A stretch of 64,000 nucleotides of DNA from Gammaproteobacteria bacterium. GTDB taxonomy: Bacteria > Pseudomonadota > Gammaproteobacteria > JACQPQ01. Below the pieces are notes generated by a model that did no database searches, had not been told where the DNA came from, and saw only the letters and a list, made by a program, of their open reading frames with translations. The position numbers and the translations under genes were made by a program. The DNA lies in assembly GCA_016207405.1 (NCBI GenBank), contig JACQPQ010000018.1:20767-84766 (forward strand), given 5' to 3'. Within the stretch, counting starts at the first letter, position 1; every line of letters begins with the position of its first letter. This document shows, one piece after another, positions 6,763 through 18,590 of the stretch.

Positions 6763-8025
6763 ATGAACACTTTATCCTCTTTAAAAGAATTTGATCTAGA
6801 CGTCTGGCAGGCGATCGAAGGCGAGGCCACGCGACAAGAGGAACACTTGGAACTGATAGCCTCTGAAAACTATACAAGCACTCGCGTACTGGAAGCGCAA
6901 GGCTCTGTATTGACTAATAAATATGCAGAAGGGTATCCCGGTAAACGATATTATGGTGGCTGCCAGTATGTTGACCAAGCGGAAGCCTTAGCTATTCTCC
7001 GTGCCAAACAACTTTTCCATGCGGACTACGCGAACGTTCAACCGCATTCAGGCTCGTCTGCTAACATGGCAGCTTACATGGCACTTATAAAGCCTGGAGA
7101 TCTCATTCTTGGAATGCAGCTCGCTTCTGGCGGGCACTTAACCCATGGGGCTAAAGTCAGCTTCTCAGGACTGTTATACAAGAGCGTTCAATATGGCGTT
7201 GATCTTGCTACAGGACTTATCGACTACGGTGAAGTAGAACGTCTGGCAAATGAGCATCGTCCAAAGCTCATCATGGCCGGATTTTCCGCTTATTCCAGAA
7301 CGGTAGACTGGCAAAAATTTCGGGACATTGCTGACCGGGTTAAAGCTTACCTCATTGTGGACATGGCGCATGTGGCGGGGCTTGTTGCGGCAGATTTGTA
7401 TCCCAGCCCCGTCTCTATTGCGGATGTCACAACGACTACTACGCACAAAACACTACGAGGCCCGCGAGGTGGCATGATTTTAGCTAAAGCGAACCCTGAA
7501 ATTGAGAAGAAATTAAACAGCATTATTTTCCCGGGGATCCAGGGAGGGCCGTTGATGCATGTGATTGCGGCAAAAGCCGTCGCTTTAAAAGAAGCAATGT
7601 CCCCTGAATTCAAAATTTATCAGCAGCAAGTCATTACCAATGCGAGAAAAATGGCAGCCGTGTTTATACAAAGAGGGTATCCGGTTTTATCGGGTGGTAC
7701 AGACAACCATTTATTTCTAGTGGACTTGAGAAGCAAACCGATTACAGGATTAGAAGCAGAAGAAGCTCTAGGCAAGGCTTATATTACGGTGAATAAAAAT
7801 GCCATCCCACAGGATCCGAGGCCGCCGACCATCACGAGTGGGATCCGGATAGGCACTCCTGCCATGACGACGCGAGGGATGAAAGAAGAGCATGCTGCCG
7901 AAGTAGCCCATTGGATGTGTGATGTGTGTGATGCGCCCAAGGACGCCGCATGTCTCGCTCGCACAAAAGAAAACGTTCTTTGTTTGTGTCGGCAGTTTCC
8001 GGTTTACCGCCCTGGCCCCCTCTGA
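6763..8025 (+). CDS. glyA: Serine hydroxymethyltransferase
   Basis: [10 protein letters not shown] motif and the PLP-lysine region [14 protein letters not shown]. 420 aa. Confidence 0.95.
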
Positions 8026-8026
8026 A

Positions 8027-9145
8027 ATGTTTACACCTCAAGAAAGTGCTTGGATGCAGGAAGCACTTCTTCTTGCAGAAAAAGGACTTTACACGACCCA
8101 TCCGAATCCACGGGTAGGCTGTCTCATTGTAAAAAATGGACGTGGGATCGGACGCGGATGGCATACGCGCGTGGGTGAGCCGCATGCGGAAGTTTTGGCC
8201 ATGCAGGAAGCAGGCGAGGAAGCGCGAGGCGGAACGGGGTATGTGACTTTAGAACCTTGCGCACACTTTGGGCATACCCCTCCTTGCGATGAAGCTTTGA
8301 TTTCCGCAGGACTTTCACGAGTGGTCGCGAGCACTCTGGATCCTTACTGGCAAGTTTCGGGCCGTGGGGTAAAACATCTGAAGCAGGCTGGAATTCAAGT
8401 GGATGTGGGCCTTTTACAAGAAAAAGCGCGCACTTTAAATAAAGGCTATTTTAAGCGACATACCCAAAAAGTGCCTTGGGTTACGTGCAAAATGGCTATG
8501 AGTTTAGACGGAAGAACGGCACTTGCGACAGGCGAAAGTAAATGGCTGACAGGCTCTGAAGTAAAACAAGCGGTTATGCACCTTCGCGCGCAATCCTCTG
8601 CCATTATAACGGGAGTTGGGACGGTTCTTCAGGATGATCCCTTCCTCACGGTGCGCGGTAAGGAAACAGAGTGCCAGCCTCTTCGGGTGGTTGTAGATTC
8701 TCACCTAAGAAGTTCTGAAGTGGCACACATTTTTAGTCAACCGCCCACCACTTTGATAGCAACGACTTCTCGAGATCTTAAAAAAACAGAGGCGTTTCAG
8801 GGGAGAGGGGTTAAAGTAGTGAGATTGCCTGCCAACTCCAAAGGCCAGGTTTCCTGTCGAAGTCTCTTGGAGTATCTTGCAACCACACAGGCGGTCAATG
8901 AAGTCTTATTAGAAGCAGGGCCTACACTTGCTGGATCTTTTCTTTCAGAGCGCTTGATCGATGAAATAGTCATTTTTATGGCACCCAAATTGCTAGGAAA
9001 TTCTGCGCAAGGCTTATTTCAATTGCCGTTTATTCAAAAATTAGAAGAGGCACTCCCTCTTCAGATCCTCCATATAAAACCTGTCGGATATGATTGGCAA
9101 ATTCACGTGAAACCTTGTTATAAAAATGAAGTACCCCCTCCCTGA
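8027..9145 (+). CDS. ribD: Bifunctional riboflavin biosynthesis deaminase/reductase
   Basis: Deaminase zinc motifs HAEVLA and PCAHFGHTPPC plus a C-terminal RibG reductase domain. The in-frame ATG at 8027, right after the glyA stop, is preferred over the overlapping 7919 start. Confidence 0.9.
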   Translation: MFTPQESAWMQEALLLAEKGLYTTHPNPRVGCLIVKNGRGIGRGWHTRVGEPHAEVLAMQEAGEEARGGTGYVTLEPCAHFGHTPPCDEALISAGLSRVVASTLDPYWQVSGRGVKHLKQAGIQVDVGLLQEKARTLNKGYFKRHTQKVPWVTCKMAMSLDGRTALATGESKWLTGSEVKQAVMHLRAQSSAIITGVGTVLQDDPFLTVRGKETECQPLRVVVDSHLRSSEVAHIFSQPPTTLIATTSRDLKKTEAFQGRGVKVVRLPANSKGQVSCRSLLEYLATTQAVNEVLLEAGPTLAGSFLSERLIDEIVIFMAPKLLGNSAQGLFQLPFIQKLEEALPLQILHIKPVGYDWQIHVKPCYKNEVPPP

Positions 9146-9158
9146 TGGGGGGCACGAT

Positions 9159-10238
9159 ATGTCCTTCTCTTCCATTATTCTTGCGCTTTCTGGGGGCGTG
9201 GATTCCGCGGTAGCTGCCTTGCTATTGAAGCAACAGGGGTTTCATGTGAGCGGTATCTTTATGAAAAACTGGGAAGAAGAGGACGAAGGTAAAGACTGTC
9301 CTTCTTCCGTCGATATTGCAGATGCCAAGGCAGTCTGTGACCGGTTAGATATTCCTTTCCATACCGTCAATTTCTCGCAAGATTATTGGAATCGAGTATT
9401 TGAACATTTTCTGTCAGAAGCGAGAAGGGGGCGAACGCCCAACCCGGACATTTTATGCAATCGAGAAATTAAATTTGGTGCTTTTCTGGATTACGCTCAC
9501 AGAATAGGGGCTGATTATATTGCGACAGGGCATTATGTACGAAGGACAGAAGGTACCATGCCCTGCCAACTCCTCATTGGAAGTGATCTAAAACAAGATC
9601 AGAGCTACTTTTTATACGCATTGAATCAATCGCAACTTAGCCACAGTGTTTTCCCCATCGGTGAACTCTGCAAAGACAAGGTACGTACGCTTGCAAAAGC
9701 TGCGGGATTTTCAAATTACAACCGCAAAGGGAGTACGGGCATTTGTTTTATCGGAGAACGCAGATTTAAGCCTTTTTTGAGTCGTTTTCTTGTTGGTGAA
9801 CACGGTGCAATAGAAACTCCAGAAGGGAAAATACTCGGTCGCCATGAGGGGCTTATGTTCTATACCATCGGTCAGCGCACGGGTTTAAAAATTGGAGGAC
9901 AAAAGGGCGGTGTGGAAGCGCCGTGGTATATCGTCCAGAAAGATCTTCCGCGTAATGTCTTGGTTGTCGTACAAGGGAACACCCATCCGCTCTTATTTAA
10001 ATCCTGTCTTTACACACAAGATATTCATTGGATTAAAGGGGAAGCCCCTCATTTTCCGCTTCGCTCGTCAGCCAAAATTCGTTACCGACAATCGGCAAGT
10101 GATTGTTGGGTTTTAAAAAACGATGTAGGTGGTGGCTATTCTGTGAAATTTGACAGTCCCCAGAGAGCGGTAACTCCTGGCCAGTCGGTTGTTTTCTATC
10201 AAAAAGAAGTCTGTTTAGGTGGGGGGATTATCGAGTAG
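9159..10238 (+). CDS. mnmA: tRNA-specific 2-thiouridylase
   Basis: PP-loop ALSGGVDSAV near the N-terminus. The ATG at 9159 follows the ribD stop. Confidence 0.9.
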   Translation: MSFSSIILALSGGVDSAVAALLLKQQGFHVSGIFMKNWEEEDEGKDCPSSVDIADAKAVCDRLDIPFHTVNFSQDYWNRVFEHFLSEARRGRTPNPDILCNREIKFGAFLDYAHRIGADYIATGHYVRRTEGTMPCQLLIGSDLKQDQSYFLYALNQSQLSHSVFPIGELCKDKVRTLAKAAGFSNYNRKGSTGICFIGERRFKPFLSRFLVGEHGAIETPEGKILGRHEGLMFYTIGQRTGLKIGGQKGGVEAPWYIVQKDLPRNVLVVVQGNTHPLLFKSCLYTQDIHWIKGEAPHFPLRSSAKIRYRQSASDCWVLKNDVGGGYSVKFDSPQRAVTPGQSVVFYQKEVCLGGGIIE

Positions 10239-10290
10239 TTCCTTTTTAACTTAAAGTTGTGCCAAGACTATGGCAGAATCATGCTTTACT

Positions 10291-10367
10291 GCGCCCGTAG
10301 CTCAGTTGGATAGAGTTCCTGGCTTCGAACCAGGCGGTCGGGGGTTCGAGTCCCTCCGGGCGCGCCA
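10291..10367 (+). tRNA. tRNA-Arg, anticodon TCG
   Basis: 77-nt cloverleaf GCGCCCG/.../CGGGCGC-G-CCA with anticodon loop CUUCGAA and T-loop GGTTCGAGTCC. Closely resembles E. coli tRNA-Arg. Confidence 0.85.
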
Positions 10368-10372
10368 GTTAA
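10322..10372 (+). repeat. attL, a 51-bp direct repeat comprising the 3' half of tRNA-Arg
   Basis: Identical to 16076..16126 (gcttcgaaccaggcggtcgggggttcgagtccctccgggcgcgccagttaa). Confidence 0.85.
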
Positions 10373-10380
10373 TCAAGGGG

Positions 10381-10869
10381 TTATACAACTTTCCGCAAAC
10401 CCATCTCAACCCCTTGCGGGACTTTTGCGGGAGCTACGTTCCGCAAAAGCTTGAGTACTGTGACTGTAGCGCTTTCCTTTTTCTCACACACTGCGTTTGC
10501 AGCACGAACTAAATTGGTTAATTCAGCTGCAGAATAGTGCGTGGTTATCCTCCCCGATCGATGCCCCAGTAAATCCTGTCGATCTTCAAAACTCACCCCT
10601 GCGGAACGCAAACGCCTCCCAAAGGTATGTTTCAGATCATGCACGCGAACGTCTATGCCAGCCAGTTTGCGCGCACGCTTCCAAGCTGAGTTGTTCATCT
10701 TGGTAACATAATGCCCTTTATAGGTAAAAACATATTCAGGATGCATCCCACGAACTTCTTCAAGCACCGATTTGGCAACACTGTTTAGCACTACCAATCG
10801 ATCCTCCCGGTTTTTGACAACATGAGCAGGGATCAAAAATACGCTCGTGTTTAACTCTGGTACAGACAC
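10381..10869 (-). pseudogene. Tyrosine recombinase/integrase remnant carrying only the C-terminal catalytic domain
   Basis: HDLKHTFGRRLRSAGVSFEDRQDLLGHRSGRITTHYSAAEL carries the R/HxxR/Y catalytic signature. Only about 160 aa remain and no N-terminal SAM/core-binding domain is recognisable upstream. Confidence 0.7.
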
Positions 10870-11274
10870 TTCCCACTCCCATCGTAGTTGACATACCTCT
10901 TAGAACACTGCGCAGTTACCTCTATCGACCAAAGTATCGATCCTTCTCGCGGCTACCGCGACGATTTTGAAATTGTAGTGGTTTACCGCTACCAGTACCA
11001 AACCATTTCTGTGTATGGCAAGCCTGGTACAAGCCACAATTTCAACGGCAAAACTTATGGTTGCGTGCTGTTTGAAGGCCACCCACTTGCCGCAGGTAGT
11101 GCTCCACGCGGTGCCAAAATGACTGAAGAACAGGCTACCGAGGTGTTCAATGCCTTGGTGAGTCTGTAAATCGGAAACAAGAGTATTTAAACCGTCATGT
11201 CCACGCATGACCTAGATTTGTAATGACCGTCACCACGTGGGTTTGGTGACACAGCCCTTTGAAAGGGGCAAAAG

Positions 11275-11910
11275 ATGAACAGTTTGCAATACAATGATGG
11301 CCTGCTCAATGCAGGTCGGACCCCGAAACTATTTTTGGTTCTCTCCAATGGAAATATCGTAAAGTTCCAGGGAGAAAACATCCCCGGCATCCTGGTCGTC
11401 AAATCCAGCAAATACCAAAAAAATGGCAAGTGGTCGAACACCACGTACCAACTGGAAATAGCTGATGGAGTTGGCGTCTGGGAAGCAACATCCCAAATGC
11501 ACCAAGGCTATTGGGATGCAATCGCTTCGTGGGAAGAAGCACAGGCGCACGTTATTGCACAAGGGGGCCACTTCGTTTCGGTGGAGGAAGTCAAACGAGT
11601 CGTTTTGGCTACGTGGGAAAAGGCCGCCGCTCGGTTTGATACCACAGCCGAAGCATTGGCGAAAATGACTGTGGCGCCAACGGAGCCAAAATCGTTTACC
11701 TTTGGAAGCCCAACCAACCGCGCCATCGAAAATGGCTATTGGGAATCCCCGAAGGAACACGATGGCGTGAGCTTCAAATTGGTTGATCCCACCAAAGGAT
11801 GGACAACGGGAAATGTGATCGCAGACAAACCTGGGATCGTGGTCACTAATGTAACGCATCGCTCAGGGATGCATGGAGGCTACTACACCATTCAGTATAT
11901 GGTTCAGTAG
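11275..11910 (+). CDS. Hypothetical island cargo protein with no recognisable domain
   Basis: 211-aa ORF followed by a hairpin and T-run at 11977..11995. Confidence 0.4.
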   Translation: MNSLQYNDGLLNAGRTPKLFLVLSNGNIVKFQGENIPGILVVKSSKYQKNGKWSNTTYQLEIADGVGVWEATSQMHQGYWDAIASWEEAQAHVIAQGGHFVSVEEVKRVVLATWEKAAARFDTTAEALAKMTVAPTEPKSFTFGSPTNRAIENGYWESPKEHDGVSFKLVDPTKGWTTGNVIADKPGIVVTNVTHRSGMHGGYYTIQYMVQ

Positions 11911-11976
11911 TCGTCCAACCGCACGGCTTTTGCCAACACCGACAATCTACAAGCAGCAATAAACGGTGTTAAACAG

Positions 11977-11995
11977 AGGCCCGCGGCCTTTTTAT
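11977..11995 (+). terminator. Putative rho-independent terminator
   Basis: aggcccgcggcct stem followed by ttttta. Confidence 0.4.
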
Positions 11996-12072
11996 TTGAG
12001 TCTCAAAAATAAACGGTCGATTATTTTTGAGTTATAATCGCTGCCTCAAGGGATAAAACCGAGACTGCTGAC

Positions 12073-12696
12073 ATGGACGAAACCACATCTCAAAAAACTA
12101 TTTCCTATCTGCGTGTTTCCACCATCGATCAAGATTTAGAAAAAAACAAAGCGGATATTCTGCATCTGGCGCACGAAAAACGTTTGGGTAAGGTTAAATT
12201 TGTGCAGGAAAAGATTTCGGGCGCCATCCCCTGGCGACAACGCAAGGTTGGCAAGGTGGTCAATCAACTCAAAAAGGGGGATGCATTGATTGTGAGTGAG
12301 CTTTCGCGCCTGGGTAGAAGCATGTTGGAATGCATGGAAATTCTTTCTATCGCCGCCCAAAAGGGTATTAGGGTTTATTCTGTCAAAGGTAACTGGCAAT
12401 TAGATGGCAGCATCCAAAGCAAAATCATCGCCATGGCCTTTAGTATGGCGGCGGAAATAGAGCGAGATCTGATCTCGAAACGCACGATTGAGGCCCTGCG
12501 CGCCAAAAAAGCCCAGGGCGTTACACTTGGCCGTCCTAAAGGCTCTGGCAGCAGCAAGCTCGACCCTGTTGCCCCTAAAATCCAAACAATGCTTAACAAG
12601 GGTGCAACCAAACGCGCCATTGCCAACCGTTTTAGCACCACGGAATCTAACCTGTATGTGTGGCTTAAGAAGCGGGAGGCCCTTGCAACAGCCTGA
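12073..12696 (+). CDS. Small serine recombinase of the resolvase/invertase family
   Basis: YLRVSTIDQ catalytic serine motif, the LSRLGRS motif and a C-terminal HTH. 207 aa. Confidence 0.85.
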   Translation: MDETTSQKTISYLRVSTIDQDLEKNKADILHLAHEKRLGKVKFVQEKISGAIPWRQRKVGKVVNQLKKGDALIVSELSRLGRSMLECMEILSIAAQKGIRVYSVKGNWQLDGSIQSKIIAMAFSMAAEIERDLISKRTIEALRAKKAQGVTLGRPKGSGSSKLDPVAPKIQTMLNKGATKRAIANRFSTTESNLYVWLKKREALATA

Positions 12697-13418
12697 TGAT
12701 TTCGGCCCTCTAATCCCCTGTATGCCTAGTGTTTGGTGGTTACAATTTGTTGCAAAACTTTACGTCCCAGTAACAGACAAGCGCCAAGCTTACGGCTATT
12801 ATCTAAACAATAGGATTTGGAATCGTCATGGCAGACCTAAAGCGCATCAAAAAATAAGGGCTTAGGCGTTAACAAAAAGTTGCCAAGTTTTACACAAATG
12901 TAACAGACAAACCCTAGAATCCGATGTACGCTTAAACTCACAAGGACAAAAACCCGTCAAGGCCGACCCGAAATCAAAATGCCATTTCAGGTGGATATAG
13001 AGATAGGCGAGTTTCGATAAAAACGAAGGTTTATTTTTGAGACTTTTAAGCACGTTTTTATCGGAGTTTTTCAAGGTGTAAAAAAACACAGTTTGAAAGA
13101 CAGGTTTACCCTTCCTCTTTATTCATTTTTTACCATCTTCTGAAATCTGTCTGTCACTATTCGTCTTTAGCCATTGGTTCGTAAAAAGCCATTAGGCGCA
13201 AGCGCATTTATACAAATGCTTTTGCATCTAGTGGTTTTCTCTTGAAGTTTATCTGATAAAAACTTCAAGCCATTTGGCTTCAGATCAGTTGTCATAATGA
13301 CGCTGCCTGTTGTCCAGATGGTTTGAAGTGAAGTCTAATTTCCCGTTTTTTTTTATTTTCCAATGGAGCCCTCTGCCGATGCAATACTCGGCTGGTTAAA
13401 AACCAAGGGGGAAACGGC

Positions 13419-14201
13419 ATGTTAACATTAGGCAATCTTTCTCTTAGTTCCAATGTTGCAATCGTTTTCGCTAAGGGCGAAAAACTCCGCGTAAGATTTA
13501 TGTGTTCCTGCGGAGAAGACCTTGCAACAGGGCAAGGCCAGTGGGGTAGTCAGGATTTGGTGTTTAAAAGACCCACTGTGGTTGTAGTCGAGGAATTGGG
13601 AGACTGGAGAGGCAAGTTGTCTTGCAAGCATCTTCGCTTTGCGAGAGCACTGCGTGAGGAAAGGCTAACCTCAGAGCTTTCGAATGCGGTATCTCCGTAT
13701 CCGAAGTTACGGACGGCTCTAAATCACGCAGGTGTACCGAAAATGGAGGTGCCGGGTGGCTTCAATCGTGCGTTGAAGTATGCGGACGAAATTCTCGTTC
13801 CTGATTACTCAACAACGTCTGGTTCATCCGGTTGGTTGGTCAAGAATTCTGAGGTGGGGAAGTATTTGAGAGGGTTACCCCCGCTAAAGGATTCTGGGGA
13901 GATAGGGCGCATTTGGGTTAACTTCGTTGGGTTCGTAAATACACCTGACGAGTGTTCAATCCGAGTTTGTTCCGAAGATCCGACTGGGCAGGAAGCACCC
14001 AGCTATTACGACTGGCCACGTGGCTGCTATATGTCGACCAACCACCAGATTTTTAGGGTGGAGTTCGATAAAAAAAGCCATCGCGTGAAGAAGATTTATA
14101 ATCAGACTCATGGCACCGAGCAGGGAGAGGTCTACTACAAGGTTCGCCCTGTAGGCAGATCGATATCTGTTGGCCAACGTCTGCCACGCGATTGCCGGTA
14201 G
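13419..14201 (+). CDS. Hypothetical protein with no recognisable domain, flanked by related palindromic sites
   Basis: 260-aa ORF with a GTG/ATG start. Confidence 0.35.
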   Translation: MLTLGNLSLSSNVAIVFAKGEKLRVRFMCSCGEDLATGQGQWGSQDLVFKRPTVVVVEELGDWRGKLSCKHLRFARALREERLTSELSNAVSPYPKLRTALNHAGVPKMEVPGGFNRALKYADEILVPDYSTTSGSSGWLVKNSEVGKYLRGLPPLKDSGEIGRIWVNFVGFVNTPDECSIRVCSEDPTGQEAPSYYDWPRGCYMSTNHQIFRVEFDKKSHRVKKIYNQTHGTEQGEVYYKVRPVGRSISVGQRLPRDCR

Positions 14202-14499
14202 CAAAACGCCCGCCCGGGGGTTAATCCGGGATGCCTTTTCAGGTTGTTATATGCTCGGCGTTTGTGGTGGAAACACTGCAGGCGCCTTTTATTTTTCAGT
14301 CTCCAAAATAAACCTTCTTTTTTACTTGAGACTTCCTGCCAGATTGAACAGAAGACAGGCGCGGCGGTACAAGTAGCCAAACATTTCCATTGACAGCTTT
14401 TCAGATCGCGGGGTAAGCTTGCTGGCAAGACTTAGTGGGACGACAGAAAATTTCTGGAATTAAAAACAAAATGAACGTCACTCTTGTTATCGGCGTCAC

Positions 14500-15225
14500 A
14501 TGCCATTAAAAAGCGAATTTTCAAGCATGCATAAGCCAAAGAAATCAGAGAACCCTAAGGTTACCCCCCTGACTTTTGAAGGTCTTGTTCACTCGATTCG
14601 TGCCATCCATGATGATCTGGCCGCTCAGGCTGATCGTGCCGTTAATATCAGCCTTACACTGCGGAACTGGTTGATTGGTTGTTACATCGCAGAGTATGAG
14701 TTGAATGGTGCCGATCGGGCCCATTATGGCGAGAAACTACTGCCGGAGCTTGCACACCAGCTTACCCAACTCAATGTCAGCAATTGCAACCGACGACAGT
14801 TGTATGATTACTTGAAGTTCTATCGTACCTATCCCCAAATAGTGCGGACGCTGTCGGCACAATTGAAACACTTGTCTCCCAAAACTATTCCCGCCGCCCT
14901 TGAAAAAGTGCCGACAGTGTCGGCACAATCTGGTCTACCACCGGAACGCCTCATCAGCTCCCTTTCCTATAGCATGTTTAAGTCTTTGGTAGAGATGGAT
15001 GACAACGTTAAACGAGCTTTCTACGAAATAGAATGCATTAAAGGCAATTGGTCCGTACGTGAACTTAAGAGGCAGATAGCTTCGCTCTACTTCGAGCGCT
15101 CTGGTTTGTCCTATGATAAGGTGAAATTGGCCAGGCTTGCTTGGGAGGGTACTGAAAAAGCAGAGGGCCAGGCCACGACTCAAGGTTTCCTGTCCGTTGT
15201 GAACTGTGGTGGGGTTGAAAACTAA
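14500..15225 (+). pseudogene. YhcG/DUF1016 family N-terminal domain only. The PD-(D/E)XK nuclease C-terminal domain is missing.
   Basis: AFYEIECIKGNWSVRELKRQIASLYFERSGLSYDK matches the DUF1016 N-terminal signature. The ORF ends without the nuclease half. Confidence 0.55.
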
Positions 15226-15403
15226 GTGATTGGCCTTTGGTGTCTGTCAGGGTTAGCGTTTTATTTTCCGCATCTATGGTTTGTACGCGGTAGTAGGCAC
15301 CTTTATGTAGCGGTTCGAAGGTGCGATTAGCGCGAATCATATCACCCACTTGGTAGCTGCTCACTTGTGCCTGTTGTGCTCGGGTAAGCCCTCGGTTAAC
15401 CAA
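15226..15403 (-). pseudogene. Fragment resembling the SH3-like domain of RecD/TraA-type helicases or relaxases
   Basis: LTRAQQAQVSSYQVGDMIRANRTFEPLHKGAYYRVQTID. The rest of the listed ORF is antisense to the YhcG fragment. Confidence 0.25.
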
Positions 15404-15440
15404 AATTGAGGTGTTGATTTCTTGATTAGACTTAAAGAGG

Positions 15441-15869
15441 GTGCATCAATCACATCCTAGGAATGAGCTAATTGCGAAAGTATTTTATGATACTGGTTTT
15501 ATTGAGAAGTGGGGTACAGGCACCACGAAAATGCTTACTCTGTGTAAGGAGCATAGGTTACCAGAACCGGAATTTTCGGAATATTCCGGCGGATTTTCCA
15601 TCCAATTTAAGTTTAAAGCCTCTTTGGGCGCCATTTCCCTAGCAATTAGAACTAAATCCCCTTTGAGTTCTAGGCAGTCTGACATCCTGCAGATCATTGG
15701 TAAGTATGGTAAAGCGAAGATGCAGTACATTTTGTCAGAGCTTAAAGATCCTCCAACCTCCAGGATGGTTTTAAAGGACCTAAATCATTTAAAGGAATTG
15801 GGTTTGATTGAGTTAGAAGGTAGTACAAAAGCAGCCTTATGGACTATTAAACCAAAAAATGCACCGTAA
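15441..15869 (+). pseudogene. C-terminal HATPase_c_4/wHTH fragment of a Schlafen/AlbA_2-type ATP-binding protein
   Basis: RNELIAKVFYDTGFIEKWGTGTTKMLTLCKEHRLPEPEFSEY matches the C-terminal domain of putative DNA-binding/RecG-like proteins. The N-terminal AlbA_2 part is absent. Confidence 0.5.
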
Positions 15870-16075
15870 TTTTTTATGCGAACTTTTTACGAACTTTATG
15901 CGAATCTTTTACGAACTTGTGGGCAACACCACATGCTGGTCACACTAAGACGCAAAAACCCTTGCGGGACTTTTGCGTATTTGGGTTATATGCCGTTATA
16001 GTTTGTTATGGGTTTGCAACGGGCGCCACACAAAATATATTGTTATTTATCAAGTTGTTAACTTTTACTTCTCTA

Positions 16076-16126
16076 GCTTCGAACCAGGCGGTCGGGGGTT
16101 CGAGTCCCTCCGGGCGCGCCAGTTAA
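16076..16126 (+). repeat. attR, the second copy of the 51-bp tRNA-Arg 3'-half repeat
   Basis: Exact duplicate of 10322..10372. Confidence 0.85.
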
Positions 16127-16166: not shown

Positions 16167-16427
16167 TTATTTTCGATAGACATCCCGTCGATGTCCAATT
16201 TTATAAATGACAATTTTTCCATTTTCTTCATCCAGTAGGCAGATAATTCTGTAGTCCCCTTGGCGTACTCGAAATTTTTCATCCCCTGCTAATTTTTCCG
16301 CAGATACGGTTTTAAGCCCATGGGATAAACCTCGAATTTTTTCTACAATTCTCTGAACATCTTTTTTAGGAAGCTTGTCTAATTCCTTAAACGCCGACCG
16401 CTTAAATAAAATTTCATATTTTTCCAT
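16167..16427 (-). CDS. Type II toxin of the RelE/ParE family
   Basis: 86 aa ending in YRIICLLDEENGKIVIYKIGHRRDVY. Confidence 0.8.
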   Translation of the reverse strand: MEKYEILFKRSAFKELDKLPKKDVQRIVEKIRGLSHGLKTVSAEKLAGDEKFRVRQGDYRIICLLDEENGKIVIYKIGHRRDVYRK

Positions 16428-16647
16428 GCGCTTTTAAATCCTTTAGAACGGCGGCAAATGCAAGTTCTGGTTCACAAGCACGTTCTTTAAAAATCGCCAA
16501 ATCCATTTCGTCTTCTCTTAAAGTTTGAATCAAAGATTCATTGACAATTTCAGAAATTGAATGGTTTGTTTCGACTGATTTAATTCGAAGCGCCTTATGG
16601 ATAACTGGTTCAATGTACACGGTAGTTCGTTTAGTTAATGCACTCAT
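16414..16647 (-). CDS. Putative antitoxin, small RHH/DinJ-like protein
   Basis: Overlaps the toxin start and is about 78 aa from the internal Met. Confidence 0.6.
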   Translation of the reverse strand: MSALTKRTTVYIEPVIHKALRIKSVETNHSISEIVNESLIQTLREDEMDLAIFKERACEPELAFAAVLKDLKAHGKI

Positions 16648-16907
16648 AGTATTCACCTCATACAAATTATAGCATCACAACATTATAACATCAAACTGCT
16701 TTAGACGAGAGTGCGGTGGGCTGTTGAACAGCAATTTCTACGGATTCATGACTTGACCACGGGGTCTAGCACGCTCACCATTCATTGGCTTTACAAAACT
16801 TTACAAAATTCTGTTTGCAGGGGATCAATCTATACACTTAAAATGGCAGCACCAGATTGGGGTTTCTCTTACCCTCATTCATTCAAAAACATGAAACTTC
16901 AGAAAAA

Positions 16908-18590
16908 ATGATAAACAAACTTTATTCCTTCATGAGCTTTGCAGTAGTTCTATTATTGCTTTCCATTTCTCTTTTGGCAGAACCCATTCCGTATGATCCG
17001 GATAAAGACTTCTCAAAAGGACAATTTGACCTGCAACAGTTCCTAGTAGAGTCTGAAAAACAAGTCACCGATCCAGAAATTTATCTAGCCTGCTGCAAAA
17101 ATTTTGACCAATTTACGACGTCCCTTGCAAATGAATTCACAGAAGAGAACCTAAAAACCTATTCCATGCAAGATTTGTTGAATCATGTGGTACGTCAAAT
17201 GGATCAAAAAGGGAGAATTTTAAGAGGAGGGAGTAAGTCCTTTATGCTTTCTTCTTTTTCAGGGCAGAAAAATAGAAAAAAACCTATCTACGACTGTGAT
17301 ATCTCTTGTGCCACTGCACAAGTAGTGCTTTTTAAACTTCAAAAAAAATTCCCACACTACCAAATACTCGATAATTTTCGGTTGATTGAAATTCCAGGGC
17401 ATATGGCCTGTGCCATTATAGACGGTAATCAAAAATACTATGCTGACTTGAATGGTGATTGGAATGATTTGAAGGAAGGCGAGGAAAGCAAGCTGGCATT
17501 CCAATCTCCTCCTGACTATTTAAAAGGATGCGATTTAAGCTCTTCTTATCATCCAGAACTGGATTCTGAAGAGGAGATAAAGTCCTGGCATTTTTCTCTT
17601 TTGGCTCTTCATTACTACCTTTTAGGGAACAATAGGGCTTGCCAAACATATTTGGATAAATCGTTTAGCGGTAAAAATGATATGGTTCAGACACTGGCAC
17701 TTCAAGCAGAACTTTTCTATGAAGAAGGAAAATATCTGGAAGCTATTGCAGTCTATGAAAAAATAGAATCCATCCTAGTGGGTGAAACCAATTACCCTCA
17801 TTGGGTTGACGCATTATGCAAAACAAAGCAACCCAAAAAAGTGCTTAAGCTTATCGAAGGGCTTCCAGTAGAGGTCCTCCATTCTCCAACTGCAAGTATT
17901 CCATGGTGCAAAGCACAAGCGTTCCACACTTTGAGTAGAAAGTACTATAAAAAGAAACAATTTAAAAATGGGTTGTCATTTGCCCAAAAAGCGCTTGAAT
18001 CTTACGAAGAAGCTTATCAGCAATATAACGACCCTTACTATTTAGAAATTAAAACGCTGAAAGAAAGTATAAAGGCAAAAGCCGAAGCAAAAGCCAGATT
18101 AGAAGGAGAAGAAAACACAGAGCAAGAAGCAGAAAAAGCCCTGCATCAGTTTGAAAGGCTATATCGATTGTATCAAAAGGGGGTAGCAAATATTGAGAGT
18201 GACCTAAATGATTCTATAGAAAACTATCTTTCTCAATACGTAGATCTCAATGAAATGAATGCCGGAAAAGAAACCGTTATTATTGAACATGAGCAATTTT
18301 TAAAAGAAATTAGCGCACGGATAGAAAAATCAAAGACATCCAAGAAAGCTAAGCAAAAATTGGCTTCTGCCCTTAAGGCATGTAATCTTTATACGAAATT
18401 TTTTAAGAAAATCAAATTCCCACAAGATGAGATTGTTTTTCTCCTAAAGCCCCTGTACCAATATCTTGCTAAAAATGCTGGCTTGCAAAGTGCCGAAGAT
18501 TTGAGCGATTTTAGTACTGGCCTGTTGGAAAAACGGGATGACAAGAGGCAAGAGCTTTTTGAAGTTTTAAAAGCAGCGGCGGAAAATTAG
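16908..18590 (+). CDS. Secreted TPR-like/coiled-coil protein of unknown function
   Basis: Signal peptide MINKLYSFMSFAVVLLLLSISLLA, a TPR-like region and a K/E-rich coiled-coil tail. The gene is AT-rich. Confidence 0.5.
   Translation: MINKLYSFMSFAVVLLLLSISLLAEPIPYDPDKDFSKGQFDLQQFLVESEKQVTDPEIYLACCKNFDQFTTSLANEFTEENLKTYSMQDLLNHVVRQMDQKGRILRGGSKSFMLSSFSGQKNRKKPIYDCDISCATAQVVLFKLQKKFPHYQILDNFRLIEIPGHMACAIIDGNQKYYADLNGDWNDLKEGEESKLAFQSPPDYLKGCDLSSSYHPELDSEEEIKSWHFSLLALHYYLLGNNRACQTYLDKSFSGKNDMVQTLALQAELFYEEGKYLEAIAVYEKIESILVGETNYPHWVDALCKTKQPKKVLKLIEGLPVEVLHSPTASIPWCKAQAFHTLSRKYYKKKQFKNGLSFAQKALESYEEAYQQYNDPYYLEIKTLKESIKAKAEAKARLEGEENTEQEAEKALHQFERLYRLYQKGVANIESDLNDSIENYLSQYVDLNEMNAGKETVIIEHEQFLKEISARIEKSKTSKKAKQKLASALKACNLYTKFFKKIKFPQDEIVFLLKPLYQYLAKNAGLQSAEDLSDFSTGLLEKRDDKRQELFEVLKAAAEN

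Follow-up and report, generated by a model that had tools for sequence, protein, structure and literature searches.

In this work we analysed a 64,000-nt stretch of DNA, hereafter called the window, from the metagenome-assembled genome (MAG) of an uncultured gammaproteobacterium; all coordinates refer to this window. We focused on the segment that begins with a tRNA-Arg gene and ends, at position 16126, with a displaced partial copy of the 3' part of the same gene. Between the two copies lie the remnant of a tyrosine-integrase gene (int), an intact gene for a small serine recombinase, two conserved open reading frames (ORFs), named ORF211 and ORF260, and fragments of three further genes. The segment is very probably a decayed island, generated by integrase-mediated insertion at the tRNA-Arg gene and gutted by rearrangements.

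The tRNA-Arg gene, its partial copy and the integrase remnant

ARAGORN detected a single tRNA gene across the whole window, an intact tRNA-Arg with the anticodon TCG (10291-10367, plus strand; anticodon at 10325-10327), which was also recognised by the Rfam model RF00005 with 66.8 bits against a gathering score of 29. We regard this gene as the integration target, with its 3' part inside the attachment site attL. The sequence at 10319-10372 recurs as a direct repeat at 16073-16126, i.e. over 54 nt with one mismatch (G at 10321, A at 16075). The perfect 51-bp part of the repeat forms the attL core (10322-10372, plus strand; extending to 10319 with the mismatch) and the attR core (16076-16126, plus strand), the latter being the displaced copy, which reproduces only the 3' part of the tRNA. 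The first 46 nt of the repeat belong to the tRNA, beginning with the final base of the 5' strand of the anticodon stem and ending with the CCA, and the other 5 nt lie beyond the gene. The two copies are 5,754 bp apart from start to start and enclose an interior of 5,703 bp (10373-16075). The mismatch between 10321 and 16075 fits a crossover 3' of that position.

Both a 25-mer search allowing three mismatches and blastn-short found exactly two copies of the repeat in the window, where shuffled sequences lead one to expect 0.00, and no third tRNA fragment that could have been a sign of tandem islands. An earlier note on this DNA had claimed that a perfect 51-bp repeat of the tRNA 3' half bounds the island, which is borne out by the repeat search and by the sequences themselves. 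The note had also considered that the distal copy might belong to a second full tRNA gene. This is not so, since ARAGORN found one tRNA only and no similarity to the tRNA 5' half was detected upstream of 16073. Independent Logan assemblies of two runs were 100% identical to the window and ended inside the repeat, as contigs are expected to do at a true 51-bp duplication when assembled at k = 31.

The integrase gene (10381-10902, minus strand) is oriented toward the tRNA in a lambda-like arrangement, with its intact 3' end 9 nt away from the repeat. About 170 C-terminal residues are left, as judged by Pfam and tblastn. The ORF itself (10381-10869) encodes 162 aa, which match positions 52-168 of the 172 of Pfam Phage_integrase, and homology to longer relatives runs from 10899 to approximately 10405, covering only their residues from ~100-115 onward. 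The remnant opens in frame at 'EVCQLRWEWEV', directly after a TAA codon and unrelated sequence. This places the breakpoint directly behind the box I 'TGCRE' motif; the box I arginine has been lost together with the entire sequence N-terminal to it. These results are in agreement with the claim of the earlier note that the integrase survives as a C-terminal catalytic fragment of approximately 160 aa, both through the Pfam coverage and through the abrupt start of homology at 10899.

This integrase belongs to a large family (3,242 matches), and a sequence search yielded two contigs from unrelated organisms, L091 and L094, with integrases 63-70% identical to the remnant. The L091 relative reads approximately 355 aa, with arm-binding-like and core-binding domains, which implies that some 200 N-terminal residues are missing from the integrase in the window. 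The integrase adjoins the attachment site as a remnant that is not functional, lacking these ~200 aa and the box I arginine. Neither an N-terminal piece nor a second integrase of the same family was found by tblastn anywhere in the window. A complete but frameshifted integrase was considered and rejected, because N-terminal homology was absent in every frame and elsewhere in the window; the truncation is the product of a rearrangement and not of a frameshift.

At the canonical position of the box II arginine (HxxR) the remnant carries a lysine, within the motif HDLKHT (10630-10650). We rejected the idea that this is a decay mutation, since HDLKHT is present in 112 of the 120 closest homologues, with lysine variants in three more (HDIKHT, HDCKHT and HDLKHS), so that lysine is the norm in this family. 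A lysine at this position is unusual among tyrosine recombinases.

The two homologous genes are themselves interrupted. In L094 (5797-8489), a large-serine-recombinase element of approximately 1.9 kb is inserted in the integrase between VNTG and CRE, ~5 codons from the breakpoint in the window, and the L091 integrase (7356-8444) has an in-frame TAA after EVC, the same spot as the truncation in the window. The inactivations of all three genes share a stretch of ~10 codons after box I, which could be a target hot spot or a coincidence.

A 22-nt direct repeat, a candidate arm-type site of the integrase, is found in two copies in the window, in the same orientation and one at each island end, with 0 copies expected. 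The P'-arm motif AACCCCTTGCGGGACTTTTGCG (10408-10429, plus strand), which overlaps the 3' end of the integrase gene, is located 36 nt inside attL, and the P-arm motif AAACCCTTGCGGGACTTTTGCG (15956-15977, plus strand), identical to the P' copy at 21 of 22 positions, lies 98 nt inside attR. Contiguous attP-like regions, made up of an arm motif, a tRNA-Arg 3' half and an arm motif, were found in L091 (8400-8650) and L094 (8560-8780). In both, a tRNA-Arg 3' half nearly identical to the core in the window is found beyond the stop codon of the integrase gene, and ARAGORN found no complete tRNA at either region. The tRNA-Arg half of L091 has GGGACTTTTGCG on both sides; that of L094 has GGGGATTTTGCGGGG as the distal copy and a degenerate copy on the integrase side. 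The distal motif is located ~100 nt from the core in both contigs.

When the attR side, the core and the attL side of the window were joined, the resulting sequence aligned colinearly with the contiguous regions of L091 and L094. The arm and core parts are thus split between the two island ends, as integration of one circular element predicts, with attL composed of the tRNA 5' part, the core and P', and attR of P, the core and the downstream flank. On this comparison, a single attP, with a P arm, the core and a P' arm, is the source of both island ends, and the integrase family is linked specifically to tRNA-Arg cores. The attP-like regions of L091 and L094 may represent unintegrated elements, elements nested in larger ones, or relics.

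The serine recombinase, its sites and the remaining cargo

The gene for the small serine recombinase (12073-12696, plus strand) is intact; its 207-aa product combines a catalytic domain with a helix-turn-helix at the C terminus. The protein has a full-length Pfam Resolvase domain (a match of the 1e-28 class) and the catalytic-serine motif YLRVSTIDQ. Its best curated family is the NCBIfam Mpi model (NF009949, master DNA invertase), with a score of 182.8 bits, below the cut-off of 272, so that it does not qualify as a member of the Mpi equivalog; its PHROG label is 'DNA invertase'. Homologues approximately 70% identical to it occur across phyla, and no match was found in the viral contig scan. 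The nearest annotated relatives (61-69% identity) are encoded on plasmids, close to transposition genes: the homologue of Thiothrix pTunz1 is divergent beside a Tn3-family transposase, that of Aureispira pAUEb is near a Tn3-family transposase, and that of a Megaera plasmid is upstream of TniA/TniB-like genes. A 70%-identical recombinase, here too upstream of TniA/TniB-like genes, is also carried by a 5.2-kb element of a Hahellaceae MAG (L102, JACKOB010000003.1, 3239-8474), together with a 548-aa ORF without Pfam match and an AAA_22 ATPase. This element is bounded by 201-nt, 98% terminal inverted repeats with reiterated ~21-nt motifs, and looks like a Tn5053/Tn7-like transposon.

We identified a dyad-symmetric site of approximately 32 nt with the core AGTCTCAAAAATAAAC, overlooked in the earlier note, which occurs exactly three times in the window versus 0.3 expected. 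Site A (CTCAAAAATAAACG-GT-CGATTATTTTTGAG; 11999-12031, plus strand), of the serine-recombinase type, has its centre 57 nt upstream of the recombinase start codon and is followed by a TATAAT hexamer. Site B (13018-13044, minus strand) is inverted relative to the two others, with the minus-strand core AAACC-TT-CGTTT, and site C (14298-14330, plus strand; core AAACC-TT-CTTTT) is oriented as A. The central dinucleotide is TT in B and C versus GT in A (AAACG-GT-CG). B and C form a 27-nt inverted repeat with 93% complementarity and 1,253 nt between its arms, enclosing ORF260 and a terminator-like hairpin (14257-14286), after which site C is located. The same dyad core, AAACG-NN-CG, precedes the recombinase genes of four homologues from different phyla, at distances of 101-119 nt. 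This core agrees with the Mpi repeat, ARACGTTCGTN (quoted in PMC8375218); likeness to this ten-base consensus is not significant by itself, as 11 matches were found in the window at one mismatch or less versus 5.9 expected. The recombinase and its sites are of the resolvase/invertase kind, and the segment between B and C may be invertible.

ORF260 (13419-14201, plus strand), the gene flanked by the inverted sites B and C, encodes a conserved 260-aa protein of unknown function and fold. No match was obtained by tblastn in plasmids or in the viral contig scan. A homologue with 56% identity was found in L085 (JGI Ga0117905_1002207, 7910-11012), from a distant genome of the Candidate Phyla Radiation (CPR) type, where it is enclosed by a perfect pair of 93-nt inverted repeats separated by 1,229 nt. 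Adjoining it is a gene for a large serine recombinase of 522 aa, only 24% identical to the enzyme in the window. This recombinase gene abuts a tRNA-Gln and lies within its own perfect pair of 100-nt inverted repeats. A CAGCC(A) core is present at all three boundaries, the 93-nt inverted pair recurs in a second assembly, and the same layout is seen in L086. This recurrence of the three-site layout of the window, beside an unrelated recombinase, suggests two possible roles for ORF260: it may serve serine recombinases as a dedicated partner, for example as a directionality or accessory factor, or it may be phase-variable cargo travelling along with them. The association is suggestive only, because no recombinase was found near the other ORF260 homologues (L095, L096, L088 and L089).

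ORF211 (11275-11910, plus strand; 211 aa) is conserved, of unknown function, and appears to be full length, since its 413 cluster representatives, most of them ~205-250 aa, align with it end to end. It is followed by a terminator-like hairpin (11975-11991). Neither ORF211 nor ORF260 has a match in Pfam, NCBIfam, PHROGs or PADLOC, and ORF211 had no tblastn match in plasmids or phages and none in the viral contig scan. A possible kinship of ORF211 with the ORF that precedes the ORF260 homologue in L088 was rejected, the two being unrelated.

The other three cargo genes are fragments. A YhcG/DUF1016 gene (14500-15225, plus strand) is truncated to its N-terminal domain (Pfam DUF1016_N) and lacks the PD-(D/E)xK nuclease domain; it covers positions 9-178 of the 351 of PADLOC PDC-S02, and in tblastn only residues 11-162 of 346 and 37-211 of 385 of full-length YhcG queries. 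Of the conjugative relaxase TraI there is a scrap of ~60 aa of the 2B domain (Pfam TraI_2B) in the ORF 15065-15403 (minus strand), with homology at ~15205-15388, corresponding to positions 669-730 of the 1960 of TIGR02760. Finally, 15441-15869 (plus strand) encodes the last ~140 aa of an AlbA_2/HATPase_c_4-type protein (positions 35-88 of 89 in Pfam HATPase_c_4, and 343-484 of 485 in phrog_12156). No excisionase, replication, conjugation or phage genes survive in the island interior, and the whole island had no megablast match among plasmids and phages. The inventory given in the earlier note, i.e. an intact serine recombinase, two domain-less ORFs and gene fragments between the repeats, was confirmed by profile searches, the fragments being three in number. 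Its description of the island as eroding is likewise justified by the truncated integrase and the three cargo fragments, all measured against full-length profiles.

Inside the truncated DUF1016 ORF, at 14835-14933, there is an unexplained direct and inverted repeat pair of 26-27 nt (AAATAGTGCGGACGCTGTCGGCAC... / GTGCCGACAGTGTCGGCAC), accompanied by a terminator-like hairpin on the minus strand. Just outside attR lie genes for a ParE-type toxin (16167-16427, minus strand) and a ribbon-helix-helix antitoxin (16414-16665, minus strand), followed by a 577-aa ORF of the tetratricopeptide-repeat type. The GC content of this region (16167-18590) is 37-39%, versus a window mean of 44.7%, and no boundary was found there; the region may have been acquired at this tRNA locus at an earlier time.

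Proposed origin and decay of the island

We propose that the island would have started as a circular element, whose attP consisted of a P arm, a copy of ~51 bp of the tRNA-Arg(TCG) 3' part and a P' arm, with a lambda-like integrase gene reading toward attP. The element's own tyrosine integrase would have recombined it into the chromosomal tRNA-Arg gene, with the crossover 3' of 10321. Integration would have rebuilt an intact tRNA at attL (10291-10372), next to the integrase gene, and left the displaced 3' piece at attR (16076-16126). So far as sequence can tell, the structure of the element, its integration and the resulting attL and attR are established by the anatomy of the locus and by the comparison with L091 and L094. 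Rearrangements, afterwards or partly before, would then have gutted the element: the integrase gene would have been cut at a clean breakpoint near 10900, losing its 5' ~55%, and three of the cargo genes would have been left as fragments. The intact leftovers would be the resolvase/invertase-type serine recombinase with its sites and the two conserved ORFs of unknown function. The tRNA-flanked insertion was not the work of the small serine recombinase, which was either part of the cargo from the start or is left over from a transposon that arrived later and may have truncated the integrase.

A local duplication or pseudo-tRNA, unrelated to site-specific integration, would account for the bare existence of a partial tRNA copy. 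It is extremely improbable in view of the integrase remnant abutting the tRNA, the symmetrical placement of the arm motifs, the agreement of the attP layout with that of homologous integrases in other genomes, and an interior made up of typical mobile-element cargo. A different question is whether the island can still move. We infer that it no longer excises on its own and is at best a cis-mobilisable relic. Excision in trans is conceivable because the attachment-site cores and the arm motifs are intact, and a full-length paralogous integrase from another part of the genome or from an incoming element, with or without an excisionase (Xis), might then mobilise the island, which would modify only the 'immobile' part of our interpretation. 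The perfect 51-bp cores and the arm motifs identical at 21 of 22 positions, despite four truncated genes, and an integrase family of 3,242 matches tied to tRNA-Arg cores are consistent with such mobility. We nevertheless consider it improbable, as the window contains no second integrase of the family and no attP or attB junction was seen in assembled contigs, even though k = 31 unitigs cannot resolve a 51-bp repeat.

The interior may also be composite. A transposon-derived module comprising site A, the resolvase, site B, ORF260, site C and perhaps ORF211 would have entered later, its insertion or an associated deletion destroying the 5' half of the integrase gene. In that case the recombinase would now be functionless, an orphan resolvase of the TnpR/TniR type whose res cores are relics. 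The plasmid homologues beside Tn3-family transposases or TniA/TniB-like genes and the L102 element with its 201-nt terminal inverted repeats point in this direction, as do the spacing of the core, whose 57 nt versus 101-119 nt in the relatives suggest a truncated res, and the insertion of another serine-recombinase element in the L094 integrase so close to the breakpoint in the window. However, ORF and family searches of 10373-16075 revealed no transposase, the window lacks Tn3-family or Tn5053-type terminal inverted repeats, the recombinase ORF is intact and separated from the integrase breakpoint by 1.1 kb of other sequence, and a pair of inverted sites that match at 93% and neatly frame a single gene is not what one would expect of relic res sites. 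We regard this scenario as a serious possibility, if a somewhat doubtful one. Sites B and C might also be a working inversion switch, driven by the neighbouring serine recombinase and flipping in the manner of Hin, Gin or Mpi the 1.25-kb segment with ORF260 and its terminator, so that read-through expression of ORF260 would be on (assembled orientation) or off, with site A serving for autoregulation only. The 27-nt inverted repeat with its 93% complementarity, the three occurrences of the core in 64 kb versus 0.3 expected, the central TT shared by B and C but not by A, the Mpi and 'DNA invertase' family labels, the AAACG-TT-CGT core of the Mpi repeat (PMC8375218) and the L085 homologue of ORF260, likewise placed between inverted repeats next to a serine recombinase, all argue for a switch. 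Yet a single orientation of the B-C segment was seen in the window and in two Logan unitigs reading through site B, the Mpi score falls short of its cut-off, the likeness to the Mpi consensus is not significant alone, the remaining ORF260 homologues stand without a recombinase, and that of L085 is a large serine type only 24% identical. A switch of this kind seems unlikely. It is, likewise, rather unlikely that the island holds a functional module (A, recombinase, inverted B, ORF260, C) able to flip or excise a segment carrying ORF260, a member of a very rare protein family without recognisable fold.

Several observations weigh against a decayed tRNA-targeted island. The closest genomes in the collections scanned share only 60% MnmA identity with no synteny, no tRNA-Arg was found near mnmA in 14 relatives, and Logan look-ups with the exact island proteins gave only 100%-identical unitigs ending in the repeat. 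The attP-like arrangement of L091 and L094 lies inside assembled contigs, one of them of 638 kb, which is not fully explained. The comparison of GC content suggested in the earlier note gave no contrast, the island (46.3%) being indistinguishable from equal-sized windows (44.7 ± 1.9%); composition, a supportive and not a required feature, thus provides no support. The two identical 51-mers also contrast with the heavy gene loss, which may reflect either fast, rearrangement-driven decay or mosaic parts that predate integration. On balance we maintain that the segment is very probably an integrated and gutted island.

The island itself matters little, being one more case of tRNA-targeted integration followed by decay. 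It nonetheless has modest uses. It is a clean worked case, in which attP could be rebuilt from both ends and compared with the uninterrupted attP regions next to homologous integrase genes, and it defines an attachment-site core and a candidate arm motif for a large, uncharacterised integrase family of more than 3,000 members. The ORF260 family, in its repeat-bracketed setting beside serine recombinases, is a candidate for testing.

Comparison with known systems

As in tRNA islands and prophages with tyrosine integrases and attP sites of the lambda, P4 or HP1 type (core plus arm sites), the insertion lies in the 3' part of a tRNA gene, the element supplies the restoring copy and a direct repeat marks the far end. 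The integrase gene likewise lies next to the attachment site and points toward it, and the core of the rebuilt attP has repeated motifs on its two sides. In contrast to those elements, the integrase is here a 3' remnant with a lysine at box II, and excisionase, replication, conjugation and phage genes are lacking.

With the resolvases of the Tn3 and Tn5053 families (TnpR/TniR), the recombinase shares 61-69% identity with plasmid genes located by Tn3-family or TniA/TniB-like genes, and a dyad core AAACG-NN-CG upstream of the gene. The window differs in having no transposase or transposon ends, in the distance of the core from the start codon (57 nt versus 101-119 nt), and in the presence of two further sites, 1.0 and 2.3 kb downstream, of which one is inverted. 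The invertase switches, such as Hin, Gin and Cin or Mpi of Bacteroides, also have a small serine recombinase beside a segment between inverted dyad sites with an identical central dinucleotide, and the site core resembles the Mpi repeat (PMC8375218). Unlike in these systems, one orientation only is known in the window, the Mpi score is below the cut-off, and the segment contains a whole gene and its terminator instead of a promoter or alternative gene ends.

The archaeal integrases of the SSV type share with our island a partial integrase beside a tRNA-Arg attachment-site repeat. Splitting of the integrase gene by integration, as in SSV, was rejected here, since it is the intact 3' end that adjoins the attachment site, the gene being truncated at its 5' end, 530 bp into the island.

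Cis-mobilisable elements (CIMEs) are relics flanked by attachment sites and devoid of a recombination module of their own, described for the ICESt-type elements of Streptococcus thermophilus. As in CIMEs, both attachment sites are intact around DNA without a functional integrase. In contrast to CIMEs, no cognate helper element is known here, and mobilisation of the island in the window is only a possibility. The island is a textbook tRNA-targeted integrative island minus its own integrase, comparable to a CIME-type relic.

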